From Cyanidioschyzon merolae (lineage: Eukaryota): a stretch of 64,000 bases of DNA. Made by a program: the position numbers and the translations under genes. Within the stretch, counting starts at the first letter, position 1; each line of letters begins with the position of its first letter. The stretch is taken from assembly GCA_000091205.1 (NCBI GenBank), contig AP006484.2, one strand, 5' to 3'. Below, piece by piece: positions 7,451 to 28,484 of this stretch. The notes beneath the pieces were generated by a model that was given only the letters and a program-made list of their open reading frames with translations, ran no database searches and was not told where the DNA came from.

Positions 7451-7708
7451 CTGAAGCGTATACCCTAGCTTATAGAGTATGGTTCAGGTACGGAACTGAC
7501 CTATCGGTGCTGTGACAAAACGATGTGCACGCTCTTTGTACGCTCGTGTCGACGGAGCGAGTATGCTCCCTTTTATGGACGCCCAGCTCGCTGCTCCGTA
7601 TGCTACTACGGGTCTCTGACTCTCGTCCTCCCTCAGGGCGCTCAAGTGATTGAAAAAGTTGGCAAGTGCACGTTACTTCCCTCGGTACAAGTTCACACGC
7701 CAATGAGC

Positions 7709-9352: not shown

Positions 9353-10379
9353 TAATCACGAAAAACACTTGACTAGACTTGTTTGATGTTCCAAAACTAA
9401 TGAACTGAAAGACTGTACTTGGTTACGACCTCAACGGAAACCCAACTTTTTTCCGGTAGAACAACACGCTACTGATCAAGATCGCGTTTTCCTTCAACGG
9501 AGGCATATGCGTCGTGTCTCATGTCGGCCTGATCTCCCAGATGCGCTCATTTAGCGCAATGCGTGTACCGCGCAAGACGCCTCACCGATCGATGAAGGAC
9601 ACGTGTCCGACGCCCCGCATTGGCACATGCGTGTTTGCATCGCACTGCAGCTGAAATCGGGTGCCGTAGATCGGAAACTCCCGTAGAATGCACTCCTGCT
9701 ATAGGCTATGTCGCTGGTGCCGACGCAAATGCCCATCGCAGTACCGCCCTGACATACATGGAGATGCAAGGGCCTAGCACGATACCCCGCGATGCTTCTA
9801 TCAAAAGCGTATCCATCGCAGTATCCTACGCTCGTGCGGGTGCGGTGTGCATCACTCTACTCAATAGGAATTTCGTCAGTTTTATTGATCGTAAGCAAAC
9901 AAGGCACGGTCTCGTTCCCGAACTCGTATATATGTTTACTCCCTATGCTTGTTATGCACACTGCACGGACGCTGGAACGAGGAACTGACCTGAATTTTGC
10001 TTCTATCCGGCGTCATGGCCTGGTACTGATGACCGTTCAAGTCATTTCCATTCTGCCGTCGTTGTCTAACTTATGGTGCCTGCTTCATCCTCCGGGTCCG
10101 GTGATCTTGGCAGAGGCATCGCACACAAGTAGCGCCCATATCTATCAGTGCGTTTGACCAACGCATCTAGTCTGGCATGATCGAGGCATATGACAAAGAG
10201 CGCATGCTGCATCCTGTTGCACCCTATCGGTTTACTTGCAAGAGCGTACCCTGTATGTAGTGGTGAAATCGCCAAACCGGGAACTTTTTCTGGACCCCTG
10301 CCGAGCCCTATGCTCCCGAATATTCGATGGCTACTTTCTGATTTCGCATTCCCAGTAGTAATACAGTAGAACATACGGA

Positions 10380-11900
10380 TTTCTTTCTTTCTGTACGAAT
10401 GAACACACACTAGGGTCAGTATGGAACGAAATGGTGCCACGACCATAGAGCGCATATATAAACTCACTTGCAGACGCCTCCAAAACTTTTTTGACTGGCC
10501 CTCTGGACTCGGGTTCAGCTTCTCCATTTACATCTCGAGCATGACACAATGCCTCTTAAAGTTGGATCTCGTCAGCTCCGTGGGTCTCGTGTTCAGCATC
10601 AAACTTTGTCTGATATTGATGGCGGCGTTAAAGTCTCGGTTCACGAACTCTACACGTTTATGGTAGCTTCTTGAACTCACCTTTGCTGAGATTCATCGAA
10701 CTCGCGCCCTCTGAGCCACTACAGTCTCGCTATCGCCACGTCGCGCAAACACTTTCTCTCGCCTATCTCTCATCGTTATAATCTTCTTGCTCTTTTTCGC
10801 TTGATTGTCAGCGAGAAGAGGACTTTTTCAGTTTTTGTCGGAGCTGGCGACTCCGGGTGCCCAAAACCCTCGACGTCCATGTTCATAACTTTCTCCTCGC
10901 TTTTTTATTTCCGGAAGCGAACGTACTTCTCTATGCCCTTGGGCGACGACCTTCCCAGAGCGAGAAGGACTTTCGCAAGAATGACGACATGTGCCCCGGT
11001 GTGTCGAAGTGTGCTGAACGCTTCAGCGATTCGCACAGTGGAGCGCTCATTACGTTTTACAATTTGGAACGCTTCTTCGATGGGCTCGAAAATTACACCG
11101 TTTGGAAGAATGGAAAGTAACTTTATCGAGATAGACTCGGCAAAAGCCCAAACGCAAGCAGAACGGTGGGAATGCCATGTTGTCCAATAGAAGAGCATCG
11201 CCAGACGTCAGCGGCAAAAGTCTTTAATGATTCGACGAAGTGGTTGGCGCTGTTGTACGTGCCTTCTCTACCATCGAAACTGAAGCCGCCAGACGAATCC
11301 GCTGCGCCTAGAACAGATGATTTCGTCGTTCTCTTCCCGTTGGTTCGTACATAGAATGATCTTCCCCACCGCGAATACCCATGTACGATCCGACCTTTTC
11401 GTGCGAAGGATGTCTCGTCACCTGAAAAAATGAACCGATGCCCCTGTGCTTCATATCGAAAGTGACGCTCCAGGAACGCTGTCGTTGCGATTTCGGTGGA
11501 AGATGTCCGTGAATGAAATAGAAATCTTTTTTGCGACTGTATCCAAGTATTTTCAGGACCACAACAACAAGCTGTTTAGAGGCAGAGACACCTGTTGTGG
11601 CTATTACCGTCGCTTTCGCTCTCCGTAAGGTGCTCAAAGGGTCGTTCTGTGCAATTGACCACGAACCGTCTTTGAGAATATCGGTTTTTGCAACGGAGCG
11701 CATATACTTGTTTCTTTCAGTGCTCCGCAACCGTCTGAGTTCTATGGTATCATTGACCTGAAGGAGGCATGCAGTCTTCATGCACTGTCCAGTAAAGAGC
11801 ATACATCTAACAGGCAATTCGTTTACGATCTATACGGTACATCGCAAAGTAATTTCTTCCTCGTGCTGCACCCGGCAGCGCAAGTGGAACAGAATTGAAT
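10380..11900 (+). repeat. Long copy of dispersed repeat family R, about 1.5 kb, ending roughly 240 bp upstream of the J-domain gene
   Basis: Aligns along its whole length, at roughly 75-85% identity by eye, with the reverse complement of 25600-27080. Examples: 'gacgacatgtgccccggtgtgtcgaagtgtgctgaacgcttcagcgattcg' against 'gacgacatgtgccccagtgtgtcgccgtgtgcgaaacgcttcagcgattcg'; 'aatgattcgacgaagtggttggcgctgt' against 'aatcattcgacaaagtggttggtactgt'; 'gctccaggaacgctgtcgttgcgatttcggtggaagat' against 'ttccagaaacgctgtcgttgcgatatctgtagaagat'. Weaker similarity extends to about 10250. Confidence 0.75.
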
Positions 11901-12142
11901 TCGAAAGACACCATGCACGTACACACCTGAGCGAACTGACACCGAAGCGCGGCGTGTTGCTATCAAACTCGTGAGACTCGGGCGCGTTTCTGCTTTAGCG
12001 GCGGTCTCTTGACGGTGCTTTGGCAGCGCGGACGCAACTGAGGGAGTCTGGTTCGACTTACTGGTGTTTCTGCAGTCGAGAAACGCCAACGAAATCTGGT
12101 TCGGCGTAAAGCGCTGCGCGCTGTGTTTTTATGATGTCCTGA

Positions 12143-12694
12143 ATGCAGGCGTTAGACCGGCGAGTTCAAGTGTCTGAGGAGACGGCTAGTGATGTCGGTG
12201 CGGATGCGGCGGACGAAGAAGAGGCAGTTGTAGGAGGCACGGACTATTTCAGTCTTCTAGGACTCCACTTCGATCCGAGTGCGCCGCCCAGCGCCCAGCA
12301 AGTCGCACAAGCTTACCGCCAGGCAGCCAAGCGCTATCACCCAGACCGAAATCCGGCTAGCCCAGCAACAGCTAAACGACACTTTGAACGTATCTATCGC
12401 GCCTACGAGACCTTGAGAAACGCGGAAACACGAAACGCGTATATAAGTTGGCTTCTGCGGCAGCGGTCTGGAGCCGATTTTTCGTACAGGGTTGCTCCAG
12501 AGCGGCGAAGAACGTACCTCAGCATGCGCAGTCGACGGCGTCTTCAGTTTCGCCGCGAGCTCGAAGCACGCGAACAGCGAACAAGTGCGTGCTACCGAAA
12601 TCGAAAGCAAGAAAAGAACGTAGAATCTCTAGGGCCTTTATCGACAAACCGTCAGAGCGCCTCCTCTCGTGATGCTCCGGCCACAGAGTCATGA
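12143..12694 (+). CDS. J-domain (DnaJ/Hsp40 family) protein of 183 aa
   Basis: The N-terminal J domain 'DYFSLLGL...AYRQAAKRYHPDRNP...RIYRAYETLRNAETRNAY' includes the HPD tripeptide. The C-terminal half is basic and low-complexity. Confidence 0.7.
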   Translation: MQALDRRVQVSEETASDVGADAADEEEAVVGGTDYFSLLGLHFDPSAPPSAQQVAQAYRQAAKRYHPDRNPASPATAKRHFERIYRAYETLRNAETRNAYISWLLRQRSGADFSYRVAPERRRTYLSMRSRRRLQFRRELEAREQRTSACYRNRKQEKNVESLGPLSTNRQSASSRDAPATES

Positions 12695-14081
12695 GAGATG
12701 CAACTGAGCCGAGCATTGCCACCAGAGCATGGATGTTGAACGGGCGCCTTTACGGTTTGTAACCATTTCACCGAGTCAAGATAGTCACCGAGTAGAAGCC
12801 GTGGCAGCGCTATCCATCCTGATGCGACGCCACGATGAAAAGCCCGTGTCCGCCACCTCGTCCGTGAGTTGCTGCGGGTTACCACCGGCGCGGTAGTGCA
12901 AGCGATATACCGCGTTGCGTTCGTGCGAACAGTGCTGTCTCTACGCGGCATAGGATTGTTTCCGGACATCACGGTACCCTGGAGTTCCAGAGGTCGAGCG
13001 ACTTGCGGACCCCTGGTGCGCGCTACGTGTCGTCGCCGCGGAGAGCCCGTTGCAAGTTGCGTCGTCCCGAGCCTGTGATAAGCAAAAGCGGCCAGATCAA
13101 CGTGAGTATCAGCTTTGAAGAAGAGTCGAAGGTTGTGCGCTCAAAACCTCGATAGAAGCGATATGCAAAATAGAGGTAAAGAACCGCTACCAACCAGTTG
13201 GGAACCAGTGGAATCAGGCCTGCGAGGTGCATTGAGGCACCTTTGCTATGGAGCCCCGAAGCGCTTGGCGCCATGCCTGCCTCTTCTGCCGCACCTGACG
13301 AGACCAGGCATAGTTTGATAGGTGCTGGCTTTGTGCGCAGGGCCCGTGCGCGTCGCAAGTTCAGGTGAGGTTCGCGTGCTCCGGCCCTGGTGGCAGCAAA
13401 CGAAACTGAGTGACCAGTCCGACCAGCCAGAGGTACAAGTCCCCAACGGGCTGTGGCGGCAAGCTCAACGAACATGCCGACAGAACCAGAGATTCACTAT
13501 ATGCGATATTCGCTATTTGGTGGGACGTGTCCTAGCACACACCAAGTTCGTAGCGCTTACGGTGCGCGCTGAGCGCGCTCGACACTTTTGAGAACAGCGC
13601 TCGAAAGCGTGCACCGAGATCCACGGCGCTAGGTGTACAGACGGCCATCTTCTGCCCGTGTCCAGCGAGGGGCGATTCTGAAGCAGGCACCCCGCACCCC
13701 AGTGTGCACATCCTGCATGCGATGGTAAAATCGAACGTGCAGCGGATGCGCGCGTACGGCCATCACTGGCGCGTCTGAGCAGTGTTCCCCTAAGAGCGCC
13801 GTCTATAGGATTCCACGGACTTGTGAGTGTGCTCTAGCGGCAACTTGGGGCTACTCACACCGGCAACTCGAGAAGGCAGCGTCGACGCTTAGAGGCAGGC
13901 GCTGTGATCAGAGGGCGGTGTGTGGTGACTCGGGACTTTTTTCATCGTCTGGCACCAGTAGGCGGTACCTGCGTTGGTGCTCGGAGCACCAGGGTGTCAC
14001 AGCGTGCCTGTTTGACACTGATCAGCGCTCGGGCACGGGAAGCAACGCAACAACGGCCAAGGTGCTGTCGAAACTGGAGCC

Positions 14082-14804
14082 ATGCCGACGTCGCAGTCGT
14101 CGAGTGTGGCAGCGCTCGGGGGCACGCAGGGATTTGCCCGGAAAGAGCCTGCGACTGGCTCCCAAAGCGCAGTGCAGCGTGTTGTCGAGGCAGTTGCCGA
14201 GCGTGTGGAGGCTATCCTGGACGGGGAGCTTCGGGAGCAGGAGCGCGGCGCCTCTTTCGGCGCTTCTGCGACGACGACCGAGACGGACCCCGAGCTCGAA
14301 GCGCTGCGCGAGCGTCGTCTGGAGGCGCTGAAGCGAGCAGCGGCTGCGCGCTCGCGATGGTGCGCGCTCGGGCATGGTAGGCTGCATGAACTTGATGACG
14401 AGGAGGCGCTCCTCGAGGCCTGCCGATCCTCAGAGCGCGTTGTTGGCGTGTTTTGGCGTTTGCGAACAGCGCCCGAAACCCAGCCGCTGCAGGATGCGCT
14501 TGCACACGCGTTGCGTTCCCTGGCACAGCAGCATCTGGAGACGCGCTTTTGGGTCGCTGAGGCGGAACGGTTTCCGTCCATGTGCGAGCGGCTCGGCGTC
14601 CAGGTCCTACCATCGATTCTGCTGATCCGGAACCAACAGGTCGTGCGCACCTTTGCCGGTCTGGGCGAGTGGGTCATTGCGGGCCGCGCTGGAGTGCGCT
14701 TTTCATCGGAGCGCCTTGCGAAAACGCTTCGGCGGCACCGGATCACCGGCGTGAGCCTGCACCCTGATGCCGAGTCCCGCGACGCACCATCGGATTCGGA
14801 TTGA
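14082..14804 (+). CDS. Thioredoxin-fold protein of the TXNDC9 / phosducin-like protein 3 (PLP1) family
   Basis: An N-terminal acidic coiled region is followed by 'GHGRLHELDDEEALLEA...ERVVGVFWRL...ETRFWVAEAERFPSMCERLGVQVLPSILLIRNQQVVRTFAGLGEW', which matches the TXNDC9/PhLP3 thioredoxin-like domain. The antisense ORF 13997-14908 is low-complexity and was rejected. Confidence 0.65.
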   Translation: MPTSQSSSVAALGGTQGFARKEPATGSQSAVQRVVEAVAERVEAILDGELREQERGASFGASATTTETDPELEALRERRLEALKRAAAARSRWCALGHGRLHELDDEEALLEACRSSERVVGVFWRLRTAPETQPLQDALAHALRSLAQQHLETRFWVAEAERFPSMCERLGVQVLPSILLIRNQQVVRTFAGLGEWVIAGRAGVRFSSERLAKTLRRHRITGVSLHPDAESRDAPSDSD

Positions 14805-15738
14805 GGACGAGACGTGCATGGCGGCGTCGAGCTCGAGCTGCGTACCTGTGCAGCACCTCGTGTGACTTTAATAAACATTTCTGGACGTTCGCTCACGTGT
14901 TTCGACAACGTTCATAGAGCGTGCCCGGGACCTGGGTCCCGCAGTGGTGTCCTGCATTCCGTCTCCGGGCAGATGCATCCGCCCCGTCAGATCGACGCGT
15001 ACCAGTTCCATCCTTGTCGCCATCGAGACGCCGCCAACAGGCAACAGTGATTTGGAGGACGTATTGCGCGTTTTGCGAAAATTTGGGTGCCCGCCGACAT
15101 CAGAGGCTGCTTGCGGATAATCGCTGCGAACTGGGCGGATGCGCTTTATTCGTCGCGCGGTGTCGTTGCAGGCACATCCGTGGTAGTCACGACACTGCGA
15201 ACGCGCCGTGCTGTCGCCCAGCGCATGTCGCTTTGAGGCGCTCTCGCCCAAGGTACAGAATGTGCGCGTTACCTGCACGTACACGGATCGGCCCATCCTT
15301 CGATGCAATGGACGTGATCGACGTGCCGCTATCGACGGCCGTACGCATACGTGCATCCGTACTGTCAGTAGTGCGTATGCCCCCAAGGGATGCGCCTTCG
15401 ACGCCCTACAGGTAGCTGTGACGTGCTATGGATACCGGCTATTGGGGTACGCGCTACCTCCTGTTCGCAATCGAGGCGTCGTTCGGTGAACGTCCGGCAC
15501 TCGGCAGGTCGCTGGCTCCACGAAGCTGTCGTTGTTTAAAGAAAAACCGTTCTGGAGTCGGTACAGCGTGAGCGCATCTGCGGCGGAGCACACGTCGGTG
15601 CGCTGGTATCCGGGCGTGTTCGCGCACGGTATCGGCGGTATCGGACAGGAATGATGGAACGCGTCCCGCTGAGGGCATATGTTTGCTCTGTACAATTACA
15701 TTCTAGAATGTTCATGATGTCGTGAGCGCCTGCATCGA

Positions 15739-18700
15739 TTGCCTGAAATTTTGAACGCCCGCTATCGGGGCGGAGCAGAAGCGCTGTGGCCCGCGTCCAC
15801 AGCAGCAGTGCCCTTGTGTCGCTCTCTAGGTCGTTGCGGCAGCTCTGGCTCCGGCAAGGCGGCAACCGCTCGTCGCTTTGGCTTTGATTTCTACATGTCA
15901 GGCGGCCGTGATGCGACTCCCGAGGCCAGCGACTCGGAGAAGTGGGTTTTGGGGTCGAAGCAAGCGTTAAACCGCCGTGCGGGACAGCTGGACGCAGTGG
16001 CGACGGACGCGTATGCGCAGGCACCCGACCAGGCCAGCAGCGCGACGAGCGAGACATCGGCTTCGAGTCACCTGAAGCGCCCGACACGAGAGACCCTGGA
16101 GAAGTTGCGCCTACGCGTTCAGCAGCTTCGAGGTCGTCGCCAGTCGGCGGAGCAGACGCACAGCAGTGCTTCGCGCTCGCCGTGCTCACCGACGCGAAGC
16201 GCCGAGGGCCTGATGACGCCGCCGCTACTGCGCTTGCACGTTGTGGCGGCCGTCGGCACAGGAGGCGATGCCGCAGATCACCTGATACCGGCACCAGTCG
16301 ACCCAGGGGCTACGTCGCCGCAAGCGCAGCGCACAGAGACACCTGCAGCCGTAGCGCCGCATCCACGCACCTTGAGCGCGTTGCCGAGCGCGTCTTGGAC
16401 TGCAACGTTCCGCGAGGTGTTCGGATCCTCGCCTCTGACTCTGGTTCCACCAGCGTATCGGGAATATGCGTTCGAGGCGCTGGAGACTGCGCTCGCCCGT
16501 GCCGACACCACGCACCTGCGGACACTCGCCGCGCGGCCGTCGTGTCCGAGTACTTGGCTGTCTTTCCTGCAGTCGCTGGAGCGGGCACTCCTGCCGAGCG
16601 GGATGCCACCGCGTACCCCCACCACCGACGCCAGGGCGCGTGCAGTGTTGCGCCTCCTGCAGCGGCTCTATGAACGGGCAACGCGGGCGGTGCCTGCGCG
16701 AGGCCACCGACGAAACAGCGACTATGTCGAGCTCTGGCTGGGAGCCGTCCGCTTTCAAATGGCACTCACAGAGCAGGAGGACGCCGAGGAGCTACGAGAT
16801 ACTTTTCGCTACCTGAAAGCAGAGCGCATTGGCGAGCATGACCCGCGCATCTGCGAGCTATGGGCGCGTTTCGAGCGGCGATTGGGAAACGAGCGCAAGG
16901 CGCGAAAGCTCGAAGAGGAGGCAGCTGCTCGGCGAGAGGCAGCTGAGCAGTTTATGCGCGGCACGTGCTTCTGGCTGTGCGCGTCATCGGACCCTGAAAA
17001 CGCCGTGCCCGAAGTGGTGCGCAGCGCGCACCATAGCAGCGGCCACAGCGCCGACGCGCCCGATGCCGCCTCTCTGCTGACGATCACGGCGGATGTGTTA
17101 CAGCCCGCTGCGCGGGTTGGCAAGGCACCATCTGGTGCGGGGCTCGCCACCGCGCTCGACCCAGCCGCACTGACCGGGTTCAGCACCGCGACCGGCACTG
17201 GTGCCGGCATTCCACCGCCAGATGAGGACGCCCCAGCGACAGCCATGTCTTGGCATCGCTCCGTGGAGACTGCTCCAGAGCAGCGCGCCACGCTCTCACC
17301 ACCGCACCAAGCGTCTCGCGATGAGCATCGCGCTCGCACTGCCCTCGACGCTGCAGGCGGTGCAGAGGCGGCGCTCTCATCACCGCGCATCGACCGGGAT
17401 CCGGCTGCCTCGACGACACCCCCGCCGTGGACGCGTCTCCGGCAGTCGCCACAGGCAATCGAACTCGCAGTGGATGCGGTGCCGGCCCGGCAATCCTCGA
17501 CGACCGATCGCTGGCCGATGCAGCGCGCTCAAGGCGACCCCGAAGCCAGTCAAGCGCCTCACATTATATCTCGTAATGTGCCTGCTGGTGTGCCTGATGG
17601 TACCCAGGCGGCGCCGGATGAGCGCCCGGCTGCCGCGGCATCGAACCCGATCGACAGCAAATCGCGACGATGCGCGGGAAACGATGCATCCGCAGGACAC
17701 GTGTCCATCAGAACAGGTGCGTGCGTGGCACCCGCAGCGCGAGAAGCGCACGCACCGACAGCGCAACAGCCCCGCGGGATGCAGCGCTCCGTCGACGGCC
17801 CTGTTGCCGTGCAGGGATCGGCAGTTGCTGAGGCTGCAGCGGCGCCCCGTCGACCGCTGCGACGCCTGGACGCTGGGAAGGAGAATGTGGCTCCATCTGA
17901 CGGTGGTGACGGCACGAGCCTGCTGAGCCTACCGCCAAGCCTCGCCGACACTGTGGTGCACGTTGGTGGATACCCGTACATCAAGCTAGAAATCGTCGGG
18001 CGTGGGGGATCTTCCAAGGTGTTCAAGGTGATGTGCGCGCGAACCCGGAAGATTTTCGCGCTGAAACGCATTCGCATCCGCAAGGCCGATCGCGAGACGC
18101 TCCGGAGCTACTGCAACGAGATTGCGTTGCTGCAGCGCCTCCGCGGCCGCGACAATATCATCCAGCTGATCGCTTCGGAGGTGCGCGAGCACGCTGGTCT
18201 CATTTACCTCGTCATGGAATGTGGCGAGATTGACCTCGCGAGGCTGTTACTGCGCAACGCTGGACGACCCATGCATGCGAACTTTCTGCGTCTCTACTGG
18301 CAGCAGATGCTGGAAGCGGTTCATACCATTCATGAAGAGCGCATCGTGCACTCCGACCTCAAGCCAGCCAACTTTCTTTTCGTTGAGGGTGTCCTGAAGC
18401 TCATTGACTTTGGCATCGCCAAGGCGATTCAGAACGACACCACCAACATTGTCCGCGAGAGTCAGGTGGGTACCCTGAACTACATGTCCCCTGAGGCAAT
18501 TCTGGATACCAACGAGGCAGCTTCCGCTGGCGCCAGCGGCGAGACGGCGGCGGCTCCCTCGCGGCGCCGCTACAAGCTGGGACGCCCCAGTGACATCTGG
18601 TCACTCGGCTGCATCCTGTACCAAATGGTGTACGGTCGCACGCCATTCTCACACCTGAACGTGATTCAAAAGCTCCGCTGCATCACGGACCCGACGTACG

Positions 18701-18915
18701 ACATTGCGTACCCGCCTGTGGCTGGGATCCAGGGCATAGGCTCGGAGGCATCGGCCGCAGCGCTCATGGATACGCTACGACGTTGCCTGCAGCGGGATCC
18801 CGTTCGAAGGGCCAGCATCCCCGAGTTGCTCGCGCACCCGTTTCTGAATCCGGATGTACCGTTTGTGGATGCTGCGAGTGCTCCGAGCAACCAGCCAGGC
18901 ATTCGAGAACAGTGA
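15739..18915 (+). CDS. MPS1: Mps1/TTK-family dual-specificity protein kinase of 1058 aa; the kinase domain occupies approximately the last 300 aa
   Basis: The kinase domain 'IVGRGGSSKVFKV...ALKRI...LVMECGEIDL...IVHSDLKPANFLFVEGVLKLIDFGIAKAIQNDTTNIVRESQVGTLNYMSPEAI...SDIWSLGCILYQMVYGRTPF...LQRDPVRRASIPELLAHPF' matches Mps1 signature blocks (ECGxIDL, HSDLKPANFL, LKLIDFGIA, QVGTxNYMxPEA). The N-terminal approximately 740 aa are low-complexity. Confidence 0.8.
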   Translation: MPEILNARYRGGAEALWPASTAAVPLCRSLGRCGSSGSGKAATARRFGFDFYMSGGRDATPEASDSEKWVLGSKQALNRRAGQLDAVATDAYAQAPDQASSATSETSASSHLKRPTRETLEKLRLRVQQLRGRRQSAEQTHSSASRSPCSPTRSAEGLMTPPLLRLHVVAAVGTGGDAADHLIPAPVDPGATSPQAQRTETPAAVAPHPRTLSALPSASWTATFREVFGSSPLTLVPPAYREYAFEALETALARADTTHLRTLAARPSCPSTWLSFLQSLERALLPSGMPPRTPTTDARARAVLRLLQRLYERATRAVPARGHRRNSDYVELWLGAVRFQMALTEQEDAEELRDTFRYLKAERIGEHDPRICELWARFERRLGNERKARKLEEEAAARREAAEQFMRGTCFWLCASSDPENAVPEVVRSAHHSSGHSADAPDAASLLTITADVLQPAARVGKAPSGAGLATALDPAALTGFSTATGTGAGIPPPDEDAPATAMSWHRSVETAPEQRATLSPPHQASRDEHRARTALDAAGGAEAALSSPRIDRDPAASTTPPPWTRLRQSPQAIELAVDAVPARQSSTTDRWPMQRAQGDPEASQAPHIISRNVPAGVPDGTQAAPDERPAAAASNPIDSKSRRCAGNDASAGHVSIRTGACVAPAAREAHAPTAQQPRGMQRSVDGPVAVQGSAVAEAAAAPRRPLRRLDAGKENVAPSDGGDGTSLLSLPPSLADTVVHVGGYPYIKLEIVGRGGSSKVFKVMCARTRKIFALKRIRIRKADRETLRSYCNEIALLQRLRGRDNIIQLIASEVREHAGLIYLVMECGEIDLARLLLRNAGRPMHANFLRLYWQQMLEAVHTIHEERIVHSDLKPANFLFVEGVLKLIDFGIAKAIQNDTTNIVRESQVGTLNYMSPEAILDTNEAASAGASGETAAAPSRRRYKLGRPSDIWSLGCILYQMVYGRTPFSHLNVIQKLRCITDPTYDIAYPPVAGIQGIGSEASAAALMDTLRRCLQRDPVRRASIPELLAHPFLNPDVPFVDAASAPSNQPGIREQ

Positions 18916-19055
18916 GAAACGCAGGTCCCATCGGACGCAGCCTCAACACAGCGCTTGTTCCATTGGTGATCGAAGCTTGCATCAATATGTATGGCCCATC
19001 CATCCATCCTTGGATATCGCCTCCGGCAGCTCGCAGTCCAAAGCACAAATGCTCG

Positions 19056-20039
19056 CTAGATGTGCCACTCCAGCTCCCCGCCGAGCGATTTTGGTAGGCT
19101 ATCGTTCGGAAAGTCGTGGCGGAACGTTGGCACGATCTCCGACTCTGGCACCCAGTGTATTTTCGCGCGCGTCTTATCCTCAATGAATGGTGACAATAGT
19201 CGATAAAATATATGGATATGACGACTATAGTGGATAATGTAAACTTTTCCTAGTCGCTCTGGGTAGTGGTTCTGTACAAGTCGAATCATATCAGAGTAGC
19301 ATCCTAGTTCAGCGTTATGAAAGACATCAAACCCGTGTCCGAGGTCGAAGACGACCGTAAAGCGCTCCTGACTATGCGGAAACGGCGACGAGTGTTCGTC
19401 TACGGCAGCGGCATCCGCCGCGTAACAGCAGTGCTCGAGCAGTGCTATCGTCGCTGCTCGAAAGGCATCCCGGTTCACGTCCCGCTTGCGGAACAGCACC
19501 ATTTTCCCGTAGAGTAGCCGATGGCCGTAGTTGTTGCGCGCACCAGGGACCAGCGTGAACGGGAAGCACGCAGCAGGATTCTTGATGATCTCCTCTCGCG
19601 CTATGCAGCAGACCTGCGTTCGGCTCCTCCACAGCAGCGTATCCGTGAAAAGTGCATACGCGGCATCGACACGAAAGTCACGTGCGCGTAAAAACTGAAG
19701 AAGAACACGTCGCCGATGCTCCAGTGAATGGTTCATGAACGCGAGCATCGCGTCAACGTGTCCGCAAGCTTTCGGTTTCAACTGGTCGCCGTCGGCACTC
19801 GCGTCGACGGCATCGTCTTCGGTGCGAAGGTCCTGGCTATTGTAATCCGACCGAAAACGTCTGGGAAGAACGTCTTCCGTGACGAGTTGCCGCTCGAAGG
19901 CACTGAGCGCATCTGCTTGAGCTCCAGTCAGGCAACCGGGATAGCCTGTTTGCGGGTTCAGTACTGAGTCGTAAGTTGCGTTGTCACAGTGGTAACGGCC
20001 TCTCGCAGACTCATTAGAAAAAATTCCGAAGAAATTCAT
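19056..20039 (-). CDS. Sec14-like / CRAL-TRIO lipid-transfer protein of 327 aa
   Basis: CRAL-TRIO N-terminal helix 'RRVLLQFLRARDFRVDAAYALFTDTLLWR'. The lipid-binding domain block runs from '...GHRLLYGKMVLFRKRDVNRD' through 'RFTVVFDLGHGF...YPERLGKVYII...SPFIEDKTRAKIHW'. Confidence 0.7.
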   Translation of the reverse strand: MNFFGIFSNESARGRYHCDNATYDSVLNPQTGYPGCLTGAQADALSAFERQLVTEDVLPRRFRSDYNSQDLRTEDDAVDASADGDQLKPKACGHVDAMLAFMNHSLEHRRRVLLQFLRARDFRVDAAYALFTDTLLWRSRTQVCCIAREEIIKNPAACFPFTLVPGARNNYGHRLLYGKMVLFRKRDVNRDAFRAATIALLEHCCYAADAAAVDEHSSPFPHSQERFTVVFDLGHGFDVFHNAELGCYSDMIRLVQNHYPERLGKVYIIHYSRHIHIFYRLLSPFIEDKTRAKIHWVPESEIVPTFRHDFPNDSLPKSLGGELEWHI

Positions 20040-20159
20040 CGATACTACTGCAATACCGGTCCTCGTAAGGGCTTTCGGTGAGACCTCGTTGACTGGAGCG
20101 CCCTACCCAGCATGCCACACGTTCAAGAGCATCGCTAACCTGCGTGTCCCAAATATCGG

Positions 20160-22111
20160 CATTGCCGGCGGACTGGCCGCGCCCGCCGTCTGCGCTCGCC
20201 CAAGCTGGCTCGCGCTGCGTTTCGACCCCCGCGGGAATGCGTGCTTGAGCGGCGCGCTGCGTTTCGACCCCCGCGGGAATGCGTGCCTGAGCGGCGCGCT
20301 GTTCTCAGTATCGCTCCGACGCGGAGTTCTGCTCTGAACGCAGCTTCTTTTCGAGGTGCAACGCGGTGTCGTGCTTGGGCGTCGCAGCGCGAGCCGCCCG
20401 GCCTCGAGCAAGACAGCTCGATATGCCGCGTGGCTGCTACGACGTCGTTTACCGTGCCGAGACTAGGTCGCTCGCGTGCCGCGGAAAAGGCGATAGCTTG
20501 TTCGTGCGGGAGGAATGCAGAACCTAACCAGAGACTTTGGTTAAAAAGCAGCACGAACCGTGCTCGATGTCGACGGCGCCCGCACAGCTCAGGCAGATAA
20601 TCGCTGTGCACAGCAACGTGCAGGCGCAACTGCAGGCCTGCGAAGTCGAGCATTCGGGCGCTGACTCGGAGCGCAAAGCAGCACGCAAGAACGACAAGTA
20701 CTGGTCAGGGAGTGCGCAGTGTGCACGCACGCAAAATTCCCACAGCGCTCTAGTGAAGTGCGCTTGGAATGCTCGCTGCGCACCTGTACCCTGCACAGCA
20801 CCAGTGCCGTCGTGCGCCTGGTGCCGCGTTGCGCGCAAGTTTGCAGGTGCACGCATATGGGCATGCACGCATAGCCGAATATACACGTGTCCCAGTGCAT
20901 GCATTGTCGACTGTACACGTGTCCCAGTGCATGCATTGTCGACTGTACACGTGTCCCAGTGCATGCATGCGTGCTTCACGGCACGACAGCTGTGTATTCC
21001 TCTCTAGATATATGCAGTACGCATTTGCGCTCGCTGCAAGCGTATCGCGGAGCACAGACGCACTGTACACGAGCAATATGCACGCAAACGCGGACCGTCT
21101 GCTCCGTCCTTGCACATGGTTTTCGTATGGAGCAGAGAGAGCGTCGTTGATTTCGCGCTGAGGTCGCCCGGAGCCCAGTAGCAGACATATCCGCTTTGAG
21201 AGCCGTCACCGGGAGCATACCATTGCAGCCGCATGCTTCTCTTGGCAGTATGGGATCGGTGTCCGATTCGAATGCTGCTGGTATGGGGGCATAAGGTTCA
21301 GGGCTTTACGCCGAGCAGGATCTCGGAATGACCTAAACACCGCGCGCGCTAGCAATAACACCTACAGCATGGCTAGCGCACTGGTTCGAAGCGCCTGCGG
21401 ATGCAGCGGCGAGCATTGCATATCGACAACATCCAATAGGGTCTTGATAGGCTCGGGCACGCCCCGCATGCAACTTTCGACACATTTTCGAGGCCGTTCA
21501 CGGAACGTATGCAGCGTGGCGGCGGCATGCCCTCAGCGTCGTAGAACGAACGCGAGGCAACAGAGGCAGCAGGCGCAACCACAGGCACGATCGCTGCCGA
21601 CAAAGCCGATACCGCTGGAATCCCGTCGCTGTGCCGTTGCAACGCTTCGATGCGGCGCGCTTCCGCCCGATCACGTCGTTTTCTGGTGACTCGCACGCGC
21701 CACTGAGAAAGCGGTCATGTGTCTTGGGTGCAGGCATCGGGCAGGCAGCGGCAGATGGGCGCGAAACTCCGCGGCATGCGCTCTACGTGTTGTGGCGTCA
21801 CCAGGTGGCATTCTGGTGCTGGCGAAGGCGTCGGTATATGACGTACCGTCGATTGCTCTCTGGCGTCGCGTTCGCTACACGGCTCGGAAGAGCGTCGACT
21901 GCAAGCGCAGTCGCTGTCGTTCCCGATATCACTGACCCGATGGCTCTGGGCTGCTGACAGAAACCGCAGCGCTGCCGGAGCACTGCTCCAGCACGTTGGC
22001 CCAGGTCCAGCAATCTCGCTCGGACACGGAGCGCTTATCGGCGTTCTCGGTAGCTGCAAATCACCTGCGCCATCACGATACTGAGAACGAGCGAGAAACT
22101 CCTTGCGCTCG
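20160..22111 (+). repeat. Segmental duplication copy A, about 1.95 kb; the direct repeat partner is at 59381-61258
   Basis: Near-identical to 59381-61258 with only scattered single-base differences. Copy A carries one extra 38-bp unit at 20212-20287 ('gcgctgcgtttcgacccccgcgggaatgcgtgcYtgagcggc' twice) and one extra 32-bp unit at 20881-20976 ('acacgtgtcccagtgcatgcattgtcgactgt' three times against two). The ORF track shows matching ORF pairs, for example 20135-20653 against 59569-59832 and 21369-21689 against 60516-60836. Confidence 0.9.
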
Positions 22112-22222
22112 TGGCATACCCAAGTCCCAGAGGCTTAAAACGCCCGCGCAGGTGCAAATCGCAAGCGCCCGTTGCTTTCTCCTCGGATTCCCGTTCGACG
22201 CCCGACATTCCGCTGCACGCCT

Positions 22223-25200
22223 CTAGCTAAACTGCTCAACAAGCAGCTCCCAGGTTCCAGTTTCAGCATCATAACTAACGAAACGTGCGCCCTGCTGCTC
22301 CGCGTATTCTTGTAATCGTTGCCGAAATCGTTCAATCGCTTGTGGATCATTCGTTGGCTTTCCGGTTCGTTTGTCCATACGGAACACCTGCTCAAAACGC
22401 AAGAGCGCCCTTCGATTCAGGCCCTGTCCCGGGGGCGGGAGACCACTCCATCGATCGGACCTGGATGGCTGTTGTTGTTGTTGTTGCTGCTGCTGCTGCT
22501 GCTGAGCAGTCGTGCGGGTGCCTTTCGGCGGCATCGCGTCAGTATCGCGGGTCGGGTACAGGATGATCGTGCGCGGCTCAATCTGCACAATTTGATCCAG
22601 ATTGGCGTAGCGTAAATCCACCGGCTCCAGGAAACGAATTTCGGCAATGTGGCGACGGCCTAGTACAAAGTTAGAGACATGGGAGAGTGCTGCTTCATCA
22701 AGGGACTGAAGCTCGGCGAGCGGCGGTTTCGTATAGTACCCTGGTTTCGTGAGTCGCGGCACCCAAGCTGGCAATCGATCGCCCTGATCGGACGTTGAGG
22801 CTCCTGACGACACCGGTCCCTGTGCGTGGTACTCGAAGTGCGCACCTGGCGTCTGCTCGGAGCCTGGTGTGGCCGCTGACTCTTTTCCGGAGCGCTTCTC
22901 CGTACCCTGGCTACTGCGCAGTGGTACGATGGGTGACATGTCGGCAGCAAATGAAGGCGTTACGGTACCAGGAGCGTCGACGTTGGTGGCACGTGTTCGC
23001 TCCGGAGACGCATCCCGATCCAGAAGGTTTGCGCTCGGGCTCGCCAGCACTGCTTCCTGCGTGGTAATATCGGCGAGCGTCAATGTCGGTTCGGTTTGTC
23101 CTTGTGCGGCTGCGTCGCGGATCAGCTGCCTGATGCTTCGTTCTGGTTTGCCATTCTCGGTCTGGCGCAGGCGTCCGGGTGTCCATACGCTCGACCAGGA
23201 ATCGCCTGGCGTCTGATTCGGACGACCCCGGGCGACTGCTCGAGGTCGGTCAAACAACTCATGGAGCGGGACGCCACCAATGGAGGCTCCGTATGAGAAG
23301 GCTCGCACTTGACTTCTGGGCCGAACTCGATAGCTCGTCACGGGCGCGTTTGGTATCGATGCTAGTGGGGCCAGCAGCGACGCATGCGTGGTATCTAGCA
23401 CAGGCTCCGAGGTGACTCGAGTCCCTTGCCATCGCTCCGCATCAGTGGAGATGTTGCCCGCAGCGCCCGAGAGTGTCGGCAGCGGGCCGTACGGCGATGC
23501 GCTACTGGCGTTGCTTGCAGGCTGCGTTTGAAACGGAATCCCCTGCGGAGAAGCGTTCGTGGCAGCACCGAAGGCAGGCATCGCACCACTGCCACTACCA
23601 CCACCGAGGCCAAAACCTAGTCCAGACGGCATTCCAGTACTCGTAGCCGGCTGCATAGGACCCATATTCGCATTTGGGCTCGCCAAGGGTCGGAATGCTG
23701 ATCCCCCAAGACCGAACATGCCCCCAGAAGTTGAGGCACCGCCGCCAGGCTGTGTGCCGCCTAGGTTCGACCCACTCGATGACACTCCAAAGCGGAATAA
23801 ATCCCCAGTCGGCTTCGCACTCGTCTGGTTCGCTGCTCCGAATATGCCAGTTTGCTCCGAACGAGGTGTACTTGCGTTTCCTGACTGAAACGCGGGCGCT
23901 CCGCCTGCAGTCACCGTAGTGCTCCCTGTGCCAAAGAGGCCACCGGTACTGGTGCCGCTCTGTGCGGCACCAGCACCGGTTGATTGTCCACTTGGCTGAT
24001 TCGCTTGCGCTGCACCAAATCCGCCCAAACTAAATCTCGGAAGCGAGCTCTGTGCGCTTGGTGCTTGACCAGGCTGGCCACCAGTACCACCACCGCCTCC
24101 AATACCACTGCCACCAGCACCGAAGCTGCCTGCCGTACCCGGTGCGCCGCCTCCAACCAGGCCCGCCGACTGCGTGGATCCGCTGCCGCTTCCGCCGAAA
24201 AACGACCCGGGCGCGTTGCCTCCGAGACCGCCTCCGAACGATGGCATTGTATTGCTGAGACTACTCGTATTCTGGGTCGCGTTCAGCGTACCGAATGATG
24301 TTCCAGTGCCCAGCGGCCGCGATCCACCGAAACCGAGGCCACCGCTTGCAGGCGCACCGACAGTGCCTGACGTAGGAAAAGCGCCCGAGGTGCCCAGTGC
24401 TGCACTTACCGCTGGCTGATTTGTATTTGATCCGGCGCTCGCTCCAAAGCTGCTGAAAGCACCGGTCGTTGATCCAGGTGCACCAGCAAAGGGTGAAGGT
24501 CGGGCATTTGCGTTCGATCCAAACAAACCAGAGCCAAAGGGCGCATTCCCAGCACCCGTTCCGCTCCCTGCTTGATTGGATCCGAATGATGTCGTAGCAG
24601 AGGACCCGACACCACCGCCAAAGAGGCCGCCTGACTGACCCGCGTTTTGTCCAGGGATACCGAATCCCGTACCAGAACCTGTGGCGTTTGCATTCCCGAA
24701 ACCACCAGCTGAGGGTGCCGACCCAAATGCACCCCCAGTACTCCCAGCGGATGTGTTTTGTTGTTGTCCGAATGTCGTTCCCGAGATCGCCGATGCACCA
24801 AACGGGGAAGCGGCTCCTGAGGTACCAGCGTCACTGCGGAAAAGACCGCTGGGAGCAGTCAAACCGGTCGATGGCTTTGCTGCACCAAAAAGTCCTGTGT
24901 TCGTTGTGGAGGAACTGCCAAGGTTTCCAAAGAGCGAGCCACCACCCGTTCCGCTGGGTGCTGAACTACCTCCAGGGCCGCTTTGCCCCCGGTTACCCAG
25001 CTGGTAGTCTTCGAAACGGAGTTCCTCGAAGCTCTTCGATTCGAACCCGCTCATAAACACGATCGAATCGAAGAGTACCTGTTTGGTTCCGTGTGCCGTT
25101 GTTTCTGAGCTTGGTACTGGCCGAAAAGCCACCTGACCAGTGCCCTGGCTCGGTGCGGCACCCAGAGCAAGAGGCTGTGACCCTGAGGTGCCCGCTTGCC

Positions 25201-25546
25201 AGGCACTACCGCTTCCGGAGAGCGCACCCCCGCCAGCAGCGGCACCGGGGGCTCCGGTCACACCCGGGCGCAACCCGCCAGAAAACGAAGCACTCCCAAA
25301 AGGACTTGACCCGAAGGTGCTTGATGTGTTCGCGTTGCCCCCGAAAGGACTCATTGACGCTGAGCCCGTGTTTGGGCCTGGTTGTGCCGCTGGCCAGCCG
25401 CCAGCCTGGCTCAGCGCTGTTTGGGTGCCCGGCTGGCTCTGTGTGCTAAACAGCGACTGTGTTGGGGTTTGTGTCGGTGGATTTGCCCCGAAAGCACCCG
25501 CCAGTTGGTTATTCGACGGCTGCGTAGACGCGTTTCTACCGAACAT
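22223..25546 (-). CDS. GLFG-repeat nucleoporin of the Nup98 / Nup116 / Nup100 family, 1107 aa, ending at its C-terminal autoproteolytic-type (Nup98-APD) domain with no Nup96 portion
   Basis: The N-terminal two-thirds carry dense FG, GLFG, SFG and FGxxxFG repeats ('GLFGAAKPSTGL', 'GGLFGGGVGSS', 'SLFGNLGSSS'). The C-terminal approximately 150 aa, '...YYTKPPLAELQSLDEAALSHVSNFVLGRRHIAEIRFLEPVDL...TGTWELLVEQFS*', match the Nup98 autoproteolytic domain fold. The ORF stops right after QFS. A polyQ run is encoded by the CAG/CAA array at 22465-22507. Confidence 0.8.
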   Translation of the reverse strand: MFGRNASTQPSNNQLAGAFGANPPTQTPTQSLFSTQSQPGTQTALSQAGGWPAAQPGPNTGSASMSPFGGNANTSSTFGSSPFGSASFSGGLRPGVTGAPGAAAGGGALSGSGSAWQAGTSGSQPLALGAAPSQGTGQVAFRPVPSSETTAHGTKQVLFDSIVFMSGFESKSFEELRFEDYQLGNRGQSGPGGSSAPSGTGGGSLFGNLGSSSTTNTGLFGAAKPSTGLTAPSGLFRSDAGTSGAASPFGASAISGTTFGQQQNTSAGSTGGAFGSAPSAGGFGNANATGSGTGFGIPGQNAGQSGGLFGGGVGSSATTSFGSNQAGSGTGAGNAPFGSGLFGSNANARPSPFAGAPGSTTGAFSSFGASAGSNTNQPAVSAALGTSGAFPTSGTVGAPASGGLGFGGSRPLGTGTSFGTLNATQNTSSLSNTMPSFGGGLGGNAPGSFFGGSGSGSTQSAGLVGGGAPGTAGSFGAGGSGIGGGGGTGGQPGQAPSAQSSLPRFSLGGFGAAQANQPSGQSTGAGAAQSGTSTGGLFGTGSTTVTAGGAPAFQSGNASTPRSEQTGIFGAANQTSAKPTGDLFRFGVSSSGSNLGGTQPGGGASTSGGMFGLGGSAFRPLASPNANMGPMQPATSTGMPSGLGFGLGGGSGSGAMPAFGAATNASPQGIPFQTQPASNASSASPYGPLPTLSGAAGNISTDAERWQGTRVTSEPVLDTTHASLLAPLASIPNAPVTSYRVRPRSQVRAFSYGASIGGVPLHELFDRPRAVARGRPNQTPGDSWSSVWTPGRLRQTENGKPERSIRQLIRDAAAQGQTEPTLTLADITTQEAVLASPSANLLDRDASPERTRATNVDAPGTVTPSFAADMSPIVPLRSSQGTEKRSGKESAATPGSEQTPGAHFEYHAQGPVSSGASTSDQGDRLPAWVPRLTKPGYYTKPPLAELQSLDEAALSHVSNFVLGRRHIAEIRFLEPVDLRYANLDQIVQIEPRTIILYPTRDTDAMPPKGTRTTAQQQQQQQQQQQQPSRSDRWSGLPPPGQGLNRRALLRFEQVFRMDKRTGKPTNDPQAIERFRQRLQEYAEQQGARFVSYDAETGTWELLVEQFS

Positions 25547-25599
25547 GGTTTACCGCGTCAACGCTTCGTGGAAGCACAGCTCGTAATCGCTTTCATCCT

Positions 25600-27080
25600 G
25601 GTGCGGTGCATAGCAGTCGATTCGCTTTGGTGTGTGCACGATGCCGAACAGAATGTAGACGAATCGCCCTCAGGATCTATATTGTTTACTGAATAGTGTA
25701 AGGAGTACTGCATCTCTGATTCGGGTCAGTCGCACCACAGTACTCAGATGGTTGAGGAACTCTAAAAGAAAGAAGGATATGGGCTCTGTGCCAAAAAACT
25801 GGTATGCTCTATAACTGCTTTCGGTCTATTGTAGAGAACGACTTTTTGATCACCTGACAAAAAGCGAAAAAGCGAAGATTATAGATGCCATGAGCGTCTC
25901 TGTTTCTCAATAGCTTGTTCATGGGGCCTCAAAACGCTGGGACACAGTCGCCGAGAAAATGTCCTAGTTCACATACGGCTATCTTCTACAGATATCGCAA
26001 CGACAGCGTTTCTGGAACGTTGCGGTCGGTATGAAGCAGAGGTAAGCCAGTTTATTTTCACAGACGATGAGACATCCTTCGGACGAAACGGTCGGATCGT
26101 AGATGGGTATTCGCTGAGAAGGTGCGCGTTCTGTGTGCGATCGAACTCGAAGAGAACGACGACATCATCATCTGTTCTAGGAGGAGTGGATTCGTTTGGC
26201 GGCCTCGGTTTCGCTCGTGGAGACGGCGCATCCTACAGTACCAACCACTTTGTCGAATGATTGAAGGGTTTTCCCTGGCATCTGGTGACGTTCTTCTATT
26301 GGAGAACGCGGTATATCACCATTCCCTTGCGATGGAGCTTTCGCCGAATCTATCGGGATCGAGCTGCCTTTCATTTGTCCATACGATCCGTGGTTCAGCT
26401 CCATCAAAGACGTGTTTTTTATGTTGAAAAGTAATAATCGCCTCGGTGACCGAATCGCTGAAGCGTTTCGCACACGGCGACACACTGGGGCACATGTCGT
26501 CTCTCTTTCGAGAGTCCCTCCAGCTTCGGAAAGTTTCTCACCTCGGAGCAGAGAGAAGCGCATTCATTTTCAAGAAATAGAACAATCCAAGGGAAGGTTA
26601 TGGACATGGAAGTCGAGGATGCTGGAGCGCCGTCATCGCCGGGTGCATGAAAGAAACGAAAAGTAATCTCCTTCTCGTCGACCATCCCTCGGAGAAGAGC
26701 AAGTGAAGAAGAATAAAAAGAAGATAGATACGCGAGCAAAGTTGTTTGCCCAACGAGATGATGACGAGACTGGCATGGTACAGAGGGCGCGAATTCGATG
26801 ACTCCTTGCACGGAGGAGTTTCACCAGCGGCAATAAACGCCAGGAGTTCATGAAACGAGACTTGAACGCCACTGTCAATATCAGACGATGTGCGGTGCTG
26901 AAGACGGGACCCGAGCATCTCTCGCGACCAACTTCATGCGGCAGCCTCGCAAACTCGATGTGTTCAGGAAGAAGCTGAAACCGGTATTAGGGGGCCAATC
27001 AAAATAGCCGGGAGGCGCCTGTGCGTGTTTCTTCATATCCACTCCATGGCCGTGGGACATTTTTTGTTTCTCTGATCACA
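25600..27080 (-). repeat. Long copy of dispersed repeat family R in inverted orientation, ending roughly 55 bp upstream of the Nup98-like start codon
   Basis: The reverse complement aligns with 10380-11900 (examples in that feature's evidence). The 5' part also matches 7150-7450. Weaker similarity extends to about 27130. Confidence 0.75.
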
Positions 27081-28484
27081 CGTAACTGAAACGAATGTAG
27101 ATGAACGCTAGCTGAGCGTTTAGTGGCGCAGCAGCGGCGACCGGACATATATGGTGCGGTGGTACTGGATGCACTCCGAGGGTGTCATTTTTTTCGTGGT
27201 ATCGCATCAGTGAACGTATTGCGACTCCCGTATGATGCAGATGGAAGCATGGAAGGCGACGAGTATACGAAAATTTCTGCGGCAAAAGACCTGCAGTGCA
27301 CGGAAGAGAAGGAAATGTTTTTTAGAGCTTTCTTTTACCGAGACGTGAGTGAAATCTGTAGTGCCTCGAATCTACCAAGTCTTTACAATGCAAGTCTTAT
27401 GAAAAATTGCTGCCGATTTCTCTGAATGTCCATGTTCGCCGTCTAGTGTGGCCTGTAACCTGTACCTCTTGAAGGCTACCCGTGTCTGACAGCGTTCTCT
27501 AGACAACCAGAAGGACGCAATCACCTCTGGATGCATCCACAGGCGTTCCGATCCGGCACTGGATAGCATCTGCTCGTGTGGCTTGGGCGGGGGCGGAGGC
27601 GGGCGCCACCAAGTGGGATACACTTGCCTGCTGCTGCATACGCTCGAATGGCGCTCCGACACTGAAGAGCAAATGCTCGCGTAGCATCTGCTAGATACGT
27701 CTGCTTTCTTGTGCTCCGGCCCGGAAGCGACATGAAAATTGTCGGTTCCTCACGATCTGGAGTCCTCGCTCAGCGGCCTGCGTAGGCATGCGACAAGTGC
27801 CGCGCACTCCTGAAGCTATATGCTCTTGCGGCAGAACCGGCCCCGGCTGAGGAGCCATTCAGAACGCGACAGCATTGAAGTGCTGCAGGCCCTGGTCGCA
27901 TATATCTCGGACAGGAGCATTCCGGCATTCGAAAAGCATAACAAGCGTTTTTATTTAGCCGAACGCGAGTTCGATTGTCTCGAAGCCCGAGTTCAGCGGC
28001 AGTGCTCCGAAGCACGCTGGTGTTGCGGTGCACCGAAGCGGTAGATCCTCGTTACCTGCATATTCGCTGCAATGCACAAAAACGCCACAAATACCGCGTG
28101 GAATACGGAGATAACTCTTCGTCGACCACTTGCCCCAGATCATCTGATAATTTTTTCAAGGCATCAAAGCGCCTTGCCCTGCTTTCGACGCAGATAGAAA
28201 CCATGGATACGTACCGCCTAAATGCACACCGTAGATAAGATTGACAAAAAGGTCACGTGCTGCAGACGCAACACAGTTCTTTCTCGCATGCCTGGTGCCG
28301 CTTGGCTTTACTTTTTGCATAAAGCGCCATTGTTTTGGGTTAACGGTCCTGTTTACAAAGGGACTTGCTTTTCAGAAAGCACGGACAGGTCGTCTCCGGC
28401 AACCGAAACTGAGCGCGCCTCGAAAAAAACGTTTCGTGGGCGCCGACGCTGGTCTTCGCTCCGTACGACCTACGCCAGCGCTCC

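Follow-up and report, generated by a model that had tools for sequence, protein, structure and literature searches.

Two decayed copies of a probable chimeric transposon form the inverted repeat around five genes of Cyanidioschyzon merolae

In a stretch of 64,000 nucleotides of DNA from the model red alga Cyanidioschyzon merolae (contig AP006484.2, assembly GCA_000091205.1; hereafter the window), two similar segments of approximately 1.5 kb lie in inverted orientation, 13.7 kb apart, on either side of five genes. These segments, R1 (positions 10437-11909) and R2 (25597-27076), jointly called R, are very probably two independent, ancient insertions of one extinct C. merolae DNA-transposon family. 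The family unit would be a chimera of approximately 1.45 kb, in which an IS630/Tc1-mariner-type (DD34E) transposase gene is followed, on the same strand, by leftovers of the Fanzor1 gene of CMe-1 elements, which encodes a TnpB-like RNA-guided nuclease; the sense of the former genes is the minus strand in R1 and the plus strand in R2. This reading draws on the homology, the architecture, the copy number, the star-like phylogeny and the compact R-free spacers of an outgroup, all of which were observed. The inverted repeat around the five genes is an ordinary relic, and neither a regulatory duplication nor a plausible inversion switch.

The existence of an inverted repeat of approximately 1.5 kb, first proposed by a sequence-only reading of the window, was confirmed by self-BLASTN (R1, 10429-11844 on the plus strand, vs. 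R2, 27062-25639 on the minus strand; 645 bits, E = 0), and a repeat finder divided the pair into five collinear inverted blocks. When the two entire intergenic regions were locally aligned, the 1,440 columns held 1,029 matches and 371 mismatches, and there were 31 indels, none longer than 5 bp. The resulting identity was 71.5% (73.5% with gaps excluded), lower than the 75-85% estimated by that reading, and was flat along the element (66-79% per 100 columns). Mutual homology between R1 and R2 stopped 299 bp before the DnaJ ATG (12143) and 93 bp before the Nup98 ATG (25546). When the ends were defined by the family consensus, these distances were 234 bp for R1 and 51 bp for R2, in good agreement with the gaps of approximately 240 bp and 55 bp given earlier. 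The equal polarity of the two copies towards their adjacent genes was also borne out: the former 5′ end of R faces the adjacent gene in both cases, so that, on the true coding strand, element and gene are head-to-head. Each copy was approximately 82% identical to the family consensus (81-82% for R2), that is, approximately 18% decayed. R2 occupied the same site in three strain contigs. A profile of the R1/R2 pair detected further family pieces in the window at 7098-7378, at 5-160 and, weakly, at 9245-9337.

R is a dispersed repeat family, found with common boundaries at multiple unrelated loci. A scan with the R1/R2 transposase alignment matched 44 loci in hot-spring metagenomes, all 44 of which carried the whole R unit (profile positions approximately 1-1440). 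These loci represented 12 distinct full-length sites, among them those corresponding to R1 and R2 in related strains, and at least two further sites. R is not confined to the two loci of the window, as would be expected after a local event, and the proposal that R is a transposable element that landed in promoters was supported in outline (a dispersed family of at least 14 distinct copies, common ends, and divergent spacers that contain promoters).

Approximately 930 bp of R had no counterpart in CMe-1A, the published Fanzor1 element of this genome, and read as a DDE transposase across shifting frames. Profile mapping placed the putative IS630/Tc1-mariner-type pseudogene (helix-turn-helix, HTH, plus DD34E) at 10908-11805 (minus strand) in R1, where it passes through three frames by frameshifts and stops, and at 25683-26573 (plus strand, stitched frames) in R2. 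R1 showed the motifs FIFSGDETSF, LLLDNMAWHSH and LPNGVIFEPIEE, with EPIEE legible, and R2 showed FIFTDDETSF, LLLENAVYHH and CPYDPWFSSIKD; as read from these motifs, R1 keeps D, D and E, and in R2 an E stands in place of the second D. Taken one frame at a time, R1 and R2 gave only marginal Pfam matches (DDE_3, E = 0.038 in R1; HTH, E = 0.11). Hand-stitched frames matched DDE_3 with 29.3 bits in R1 (E = 9e-7) and 25.5 bits in R2 (E = 1.3e-5, with hints of the HTH). Because hand stitching was guided by our own motif reading, we sought a test based on the consensus, and a plain majority consensus of the 14 copies, read in one frame without stitching, provided an unbiased one. This frame matched Pfam DDE_3 with E = 1.2e-15 (58 bits, profile positions 4-136 of 146) and the NCBIfam model "IS630 family transposase" with E = 9e-17. 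With two frame corrections, the scores were 74.8 bits for DDE_3 and 118.5 bits for NCBIfam IS630 (E = 3.7e-34; cutoff, 100 bits). A second consensus frame gave a weak Tc3-type HTH (E = 0.0017), and a DD34E spacing could be read in the consensus (VDETSF ... LLLDN-(34)-PIE). The consensus transposase was similar to the Mariner transposase of PUl-1 across the D-D-E motifs (BLASTP, E = 2e-10); by sequence, it matched none of the solved transposase structures in the PDB.

The remainder of R derives from CMe-1A, a 3,169-bp Fanzor1 element with approximately 150 copies in C. merolae, each approximately 80% identical to its consensus (Bao and Jurka 2013, PMC3627910). CMe-1A was published without terminal inverted repeats (TIRs), determined target duplications or a classification, and its 5′ 635 bp are another repeat, TE-N2_CMe (PMC3627910). 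We took the CMe-1A consensus from the supplementary file of that paper and aligned it to the window by BLASTN. Positions 888-969 and 2840-3093 of CMe-1A matched R1 at 10910-10824 and 10711-10461, respectively, and positions 869-968 and 2832-3083 matched R2 at 26556-26662 and 26775-27021. What remains in R is the start of the CMe-1 Fanzor1 gene and its last 90 codons or so. In R1, the 5′-end remnant (10720-10910, minus strand) covers approximately the first 55-65 codons, to "...SETVV", and was recognized by the CMe-1A match and by the N-terminal motif RDRREKVFARRGDSETVV, which fits the family consensus RPDRxEKLxxRKxxxETVVK. The C-terminal remnant (10461-10716, minus strand) carries the RuvC-III motif EFVNRDFNAAINIR and was recognized by the CMe-1A match and the family profile, as were the R2 remnants (26556-27021, plus strand), which have the same internal deletion. 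The reverse strand of R1 reads "...EFVNRDFNAAINIR...RPTELTRSNF" and the plus strand of R2 reads "...EFMKRDLNATVNIRRCAVLKTGPEHLSRP". In both copies, "...RDRREKVFARRGDSETVV" runs directly into the C-terminal "...AQRARVR...FVNRDFNAA", and this common junction points to a shared internal deletion of approximately 1.76 kb.

Beside R1 lies a near-full-length CMe-1A copy (CMe-1A 671-3092 at 9534-7121, minus strand, 77% identity). Its Fanzor1 pseudogene (7121-9534) comprises the open reading frame (ORF) at 7709-9352 (547 aa) and a continuation in the same frame past three stops, in which TnpB/Fanzor-like motifs were found. The 547-aa ORF had 43 homologues in an indexed search and 434 cluster representatives in an exhaustive search, and one distant relative carries a Cas12f1-like TNB domain; the ORF alone had no Pfam or PDB match, and a three-sequence profile of the decayed C-termini had no PDB match. 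An alignment of full-length members, built without any R sequence, showed the RuvC motifs VIGxDPGRxNI, VDEFRTS and FVNRDLNAAxNIRRC, and its profile matched two solved Fanzor1 structures, 9cf0 from Parasitella parasitica (E = 8.9e-12) and 8gkh from Spizellomyces punctatus (E = 7.5e-9). The same profile matched R1 at 10716-10549 (E = 2e-13) and R2 at 26778-26954 (E = 1.4e-13), and TBLASTN with the extended 547-aa ORF matched R1 (10731-10459) and R2 (26685-27013) with E of approximately 1e-11. R keeps the RuvC-III region alone, RuvC-I and RuvC-II lying within the deletion, so that neither copy holds a complete nuclease domain. All three RuvC catalytic positions were changed in the Fanzor1 copy beside R1 (GTE-RPG, IGQFRT*, NLGMNAA).

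Two sub-families of R were distinguished by different deletion junctions. In sub-family A (R1, R2, L015, L022 and L041, the L numbers denoting metagenome loci), the transposase is followed by CMe-1A 869 to approximately 1070 and approximately 2835-3093, whereas in sub-family B (nine other sites) it is followed by CMe-1A 2737-3093. That one region was deleted in two different ways implies a parent in which the transposase was followed by a complete Fanzor1 gene, and, judging from these variants, the parent of R was most likely a transposase plus full Fanzor1 element of approximately 3.2 kb. Large internal deletions in such a parent would have produced variants A and B, and the deleted derivative would have amplified in a single burst. 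Its copies would have inserted mainly into gene-free spacers of the compact genome, often spacers with divergent promoters, and would have decayed neutrally afterwards, each to approximately 18% from the consensus. The inverted layout around the five genes would then be coincidental, two copies having inserted in opposite orientation at a distance of 13.7 kb. Conservation across the family was flat (approximately 0.75-0.85), and the longest ORF in any R copy was at most 221 aa. TE-N2_CMe fragments lay within a few hundred base pairs of an R copy in 5 of the 14 metagenome loci (L022, L032, L041, L047 and L052), which hints at nesting or at shared insertion hot spots.

The sequence-only reading had offered a second explanation, an ancient local inverted duplication of a promoter-proximal region common to the DnaJ and Nup98 genes. 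In its favor is only the layout itself, a pair 13.7 kb apart in which each copy faces a gene start with equal polarity; the remaining evidence makes it highly improbable. At least 12 further copies with the same ends lie at unrelated loci, and their content is that of transposase and Fanzor1 pseudogenes rather than promoter DNA. The homology of R1 to R2 ends abruptly, and none is shared by their flanks. In the transposase region, the 91 pairs formed by the 14 copies had identities of 66-72% (mean 69.1, standard deviation 1.4); R1 and R2 were 71.9% identical, a value equal to those of the pairs R1-L029, R1-L046 and R2-L015. These star-like identities, with R1 and R2 no closer to each other than other pairs, argue for a single burst. 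In Cyanidiococcus yangmingshanensis, the order and orientation of the genes are identical (LID-hydrolase, 673-aa gene, DnaJ, PhLP3-like, kinase, Sec14, Nup98 and Nup96), and the orthologous spacers measure 1.3 kb and 1.2 kb, compared with 5.3 kb and 2.9 kb in the window. No signal of R, CMe-1A or the transposase was found at either Cyanidiococcus locus. Compact spacers without detected R indicate that R1 and R2 were separate insertions made after the split from Cyanidiococcus; as judged by these sequence comparisons, they are independent ancient insertions and not a local duplication.

The present state of R differs from its origin. Neither R1 nor R2 contains a long ORF. None of the 31 indels between them was a multiple of 3, mismatches by codon position (123/129/119) had no 3-periodicity, and the six frames scored alike in TBLASTX; therefore, the divergence between R1 and R2 was neutral. 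A scan of the whole window found no Rfam families and no tRNAs. The earlier statement that R is probably non-coding holds for its state today and fails for its origin, since R, although it has no coding signal now, descends, as its motifs and profile matches indicate, from IS630-type transposase and Fanzor1 genes on the opposite strand. To call R non-coding from the R1/R2 coding tests was considered and rejected: those tests are valid solely for the divergence since insertion. Pairwise coding tests between old pseudogene copies can thus be negative despite a coding origin, and the ancestral genes may sit on the other strand. The Pfam DDE_3 matches of single R1 or R2 frames were marginal, and it took the family consensus to reach significance.

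It had also been proposed that the pair is a substrate for inversion of the enclosed block. An inverted orientation over 1.4 kb would suit an active substrate of homologous recombination, but the identity of 71.5%, the longest perfect match of 17 bp and a Kimura two-parameter distance of 0.33 do not. Such low identity makes inversion by homologous recombination unlikely. Six related-strain contigs (98.6-99.4% identical to the window) were collinear with it across both R junctions, and no inverted isomer was found among them. The genes are arranged and oriented alike in Cyanidiococcus, in which R was detected at neither site. Given the low identity, the short perfect matches and the six collinear contigs, an inverted isomer arising from R1 and R2 is unlikely, and there is hardly any chance that the pair actively inverts the 13.7-kb block.

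Several observations weigh against the transposon interpretation as outlined. The copies were counted in metagenomes of closely related strains and not in the 10D assembly itself, and the recovered copies included no intact one and no full-length transposase plus Fanzor1 parent. IS630/Tc1-mariner elements normally have TIRs and TA duplications. No TIRs were found in R1, R2 or the consensus, with end-to-end alignment scores equal to those of shuffled controls, and no TA target-site duplication was seen; the ends of the 14 copies fray over approximately 20-40 bp, so that exact termini are not fixed and target duplications are not readable. In addition, the consensus retains two compensating frameshifts inside the DDE domain, and the amplifying master may already have lost a working transposase.

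We infer that the family's own transposase moved R and that a need for it in cis explains why the 3′ end of Fanzor was kept. Alternatively, the IS630-type gene was a captured passenger, and R was moved by the mechanism of the TIR-less CMe-1A (possibly Fanzor1 acting with the retained 3′ end) instead of classical cut-and-paste. The missing TIRs and TA duplications and the frameshifted consensus transposase speak for this explanation, as does CMe-1A itself, which is likewise TIR-less and unclassified (PMC3627910). Further points in its favor are an 11-bp direct motif, TTTTGTTTCAC, near both consensus ends (window positions approximately 11880-11909 and 10437-10450), the resemblance of the 5′-terminal 35 bp or so of the R consensus to CMe-1A positions approximately 790-830, which immediately precede the Fanzor1 ORF, and the retention of CMe-1A 2835-3093 by both sub-families. 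However, at approximately 18% divergence from the consensus, short TIRs and 2-bp duplications could have been eroded, Fanzor1 genes are documented in genuine Mariner elements (PUl-1 and PGv-1; Bao and Jurka 2013, PMC3627910), and the retained 3′ region showed no conserved RNA structure. On balance, we consider a captured passenger unlikely, although it carries more weight than any other alternative discussed here.

R belongs to known kinds of element, the IS630/Tc1-mariner transposons with Fanzor1 and the CMe-1A family, and differs in some respects from each. It shares with CMe-1A the genome, the age class (approximately 80% identity to consensus) and the lack of TIRs, and holds CMe-1A positions of approximately 869-1070 and 2832-3093 at 69-75% identity. 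Unlike CMe-1A, R lacks approximately 1.76 kb of the Fanzor1 ORF and positions 1-868 (including the TE-N2_CMe part), carries the IS630/Tc1-type transposase of approximately 930 bp that is absent from the CMe-1A consensus, and departs from CMe-1A at its 3′ end past position 3093. The order of transposase and Fanzor1 on one strand is that of the Mariner/Tc1 elements PUl-1 and PGv-1; in PUl-1, however, Fanzor1 is intact (802 aa), and TIRs of 24 bp and TA duplications are present (Bao and Jurka 2013), whereas R has no detectable TIRs or duplications, Fanzor1 remnants only, and no living copy. Like the IS630/Tc1-mariner (ITm) group, R has a consensus above the NCBIfam IS630 cutoff, a DDE_3 match, DD34E spacing and a weak Tc3-type HTH, but it has no detected TIRs or TA duplications, no match to a solved structure and only pseudogene copies. 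It resembles internally deleted transposons of the MITE (miniature inverted-repeat transposable element) type in being a deletion derivative with many copies that keeps both ends of the gene region; unlike them, it measures 1.45 kb instead of a few hundred base pairs, is TIR-less, and keeps the body of the transposase gene while the passenger gene is deleted.

The chimeric R family and its link between CMe-1A and IS630 were not found in the literature searched, Repbase lying outside that search. The repeat survey of Rudenko and Korotkov (2024) does not describe R, and the Ensembl repeat classes it gives for this genome include no Tc1/mariner class (PMC11050394). R links CMe-1A, which was published without a transposase, to an IS630-type transposase. 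The fusion of Fanzor1 pieces to an IS630/Tc1-mariner-type transposase, seen in 14 or more old copies and with two different deletion junctions, points to a Mariner-like origin of CMe-1A, by analogy with Fanzor1 in oomycetes and giant viruses. TBLASTN found no transposase pieces of R at three metagenome Fanzor1 loci (L008-L010), and the CMe-1A copies there are thus without the transposase. In one metagenome contig (L009/L010, positions 814-2710), a reverse-transcriptase gene (RVT_1) adjoins another CMe-1A copy; retroelements therefore share these spacers rich in transposable elements.

Whether R has acquired a role in its present location was weighed separately. R2, and perhaps R1, might supply a promoter or 5′ untranslated region and thus be functional regulatory DNA or non-coding RNA. 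The proximity of the element ends to the Nup98 and DnaJ start codons is compatible with such co-option, as is the placement of the copies: among the 10 distinct copies for which both neighbors could be identified, 7 lay in divergent spacers, compared with approximately 25% expected. Our binomial estimate for this excess (approximately 0.004 against 25%) is crude, since the neighbors are raw ORF calls, a divergent spacer offers a larger target, and the Fanzor1 pseudogene itself counts as one "neighbor" among the 10 copies. The enrichment may reflect an insertion preference, or it can result from selection against insertions elsewhere in a compact genome. Between strains, R2 had 4.9 substitutions/kb, compared with 7.0 in the adjoining unique spacer (7 vs. 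10 events) and 5.8-7.5 in the flanking genes, and a rate so close to that of its neighbors gives no clear sign of constraint. Together with the flat conservation across the family and the lack of an Rfam match or a conserved structure, these data make co-option quite unlikely.

Guide RNAs of TnpB and Fanzor are encoded at the 3′ end of the gene. Both sub-families of R keep the Fanzor1 3′ end, which would be consistent with a role in cis in the ancestor. RNAalifold on 11 copies found no conserved guide-RNA (fRNA) structure in this retained end (336 columns, -6.2 kcal/mol, unfavorable covariation term of +0.71), although dead copies may no longer show one. A more speculative scenario, to which we give a low probability, is that CMe-1A stems from an autonomous IS630/Tc1-type transposon, that R was maintained or spread, with a bias towards divergent promoters, by Fanzor1 that CMe-1A copies provided in trans and that acted through the retained 3′ end as a guide RNA or a cis site, and that R2 may now provide the Nup98 promoter. 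If true, this would be a eukaryotic example of cooperation between a transposase element and an RNA-guided nuclease, with autonomous and deleted elements as the partners.

Proteins encoded in the window matched BAM78915.1 and BAM78917.1 exactly, which belong to the 457,013-bp chromosome of C. merolae strain 10D; an exact look-up of two window ORFs returned no record. The long ORFs of the window were intronless, with frequent strand switches. Pfam identified LID-hydrolase, DnaJ, protein kinase, CRAL_TRIO, Nup98 autopeptidase and Nup96 domains, and the database name of the PhLP3-like gene is thioredoxin-domain protein, so that the enclosed genes had been correctly read as J-protein, PhLP3, kinase, Sec14 and Nup98. 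R1 is head-to-head with the DnaJ-domain gene (12143-12694, plus strand; Pfam DnaJ) in a divergent spacer bounded on its other side by the minus-strand ORF 7709-9352. R2 is head-to-head with the Nup98-like gene (22223-25546, minus strand; Pfam Nucleoporin2 and Nup98_GLEBS), and the Nup96-like gene (28485-32435, plus strand; Pfam Nup96) lies on the far side of this spacer, which is also divergent. Spacer segments 9535-10436, 11910-12142 and 27077-28484 were unique, with no match elsewhere in the window or in the compared loci. Stretches of approximately 0.9 kb (9535-10436) and 1.4 kb (27077-28484) are free of ORFs, and, with R, the spacers are two to four times as long as in Cyanidiococcus. Nup98 and Nup96 are separate divergent genes and not one Nup98-96 precursor gene, an arrangement that is kept in Cyanidiococcus and in a metagenomic relative at approximately 49% protein identity.

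Other repeats were found in the window. Further CMe-1A fragments lie at the left window edge (196-51, minus strand, CMe-1A 832-969) and, from the 5′ TE-N2_CMe region, at 38173-38350 (CMe-1A 84-256) and 44749-44801 (CMe-1A 31-83). The left-edge fragment adjoins a tandem array at 213-1119 (21 copies of a 43-bp unit, 94% matches). Segments 20161-22111 (the "duplication copy A" of the sequence-only reading) and 59382-61258 form a direct duplication of 1.95 kb with 95.5% identity, much younger than R, which holds 42-bp and 32-bp tandem repeats with TGCATGCA cores. The PhLP3-like gene (14082-14804) and the kinase gene (15739-18915) recur as an almost identical pair at another place on their chromosome, the PhLP3-like proteins BAM78915 and BAM78881 falling in one 90% cluster. 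Cyanidiococcus also has two PhLP3-like/kinase loci with identical PhLP3-like proteins, which suggests an old duplication held uniform by gene conversion.

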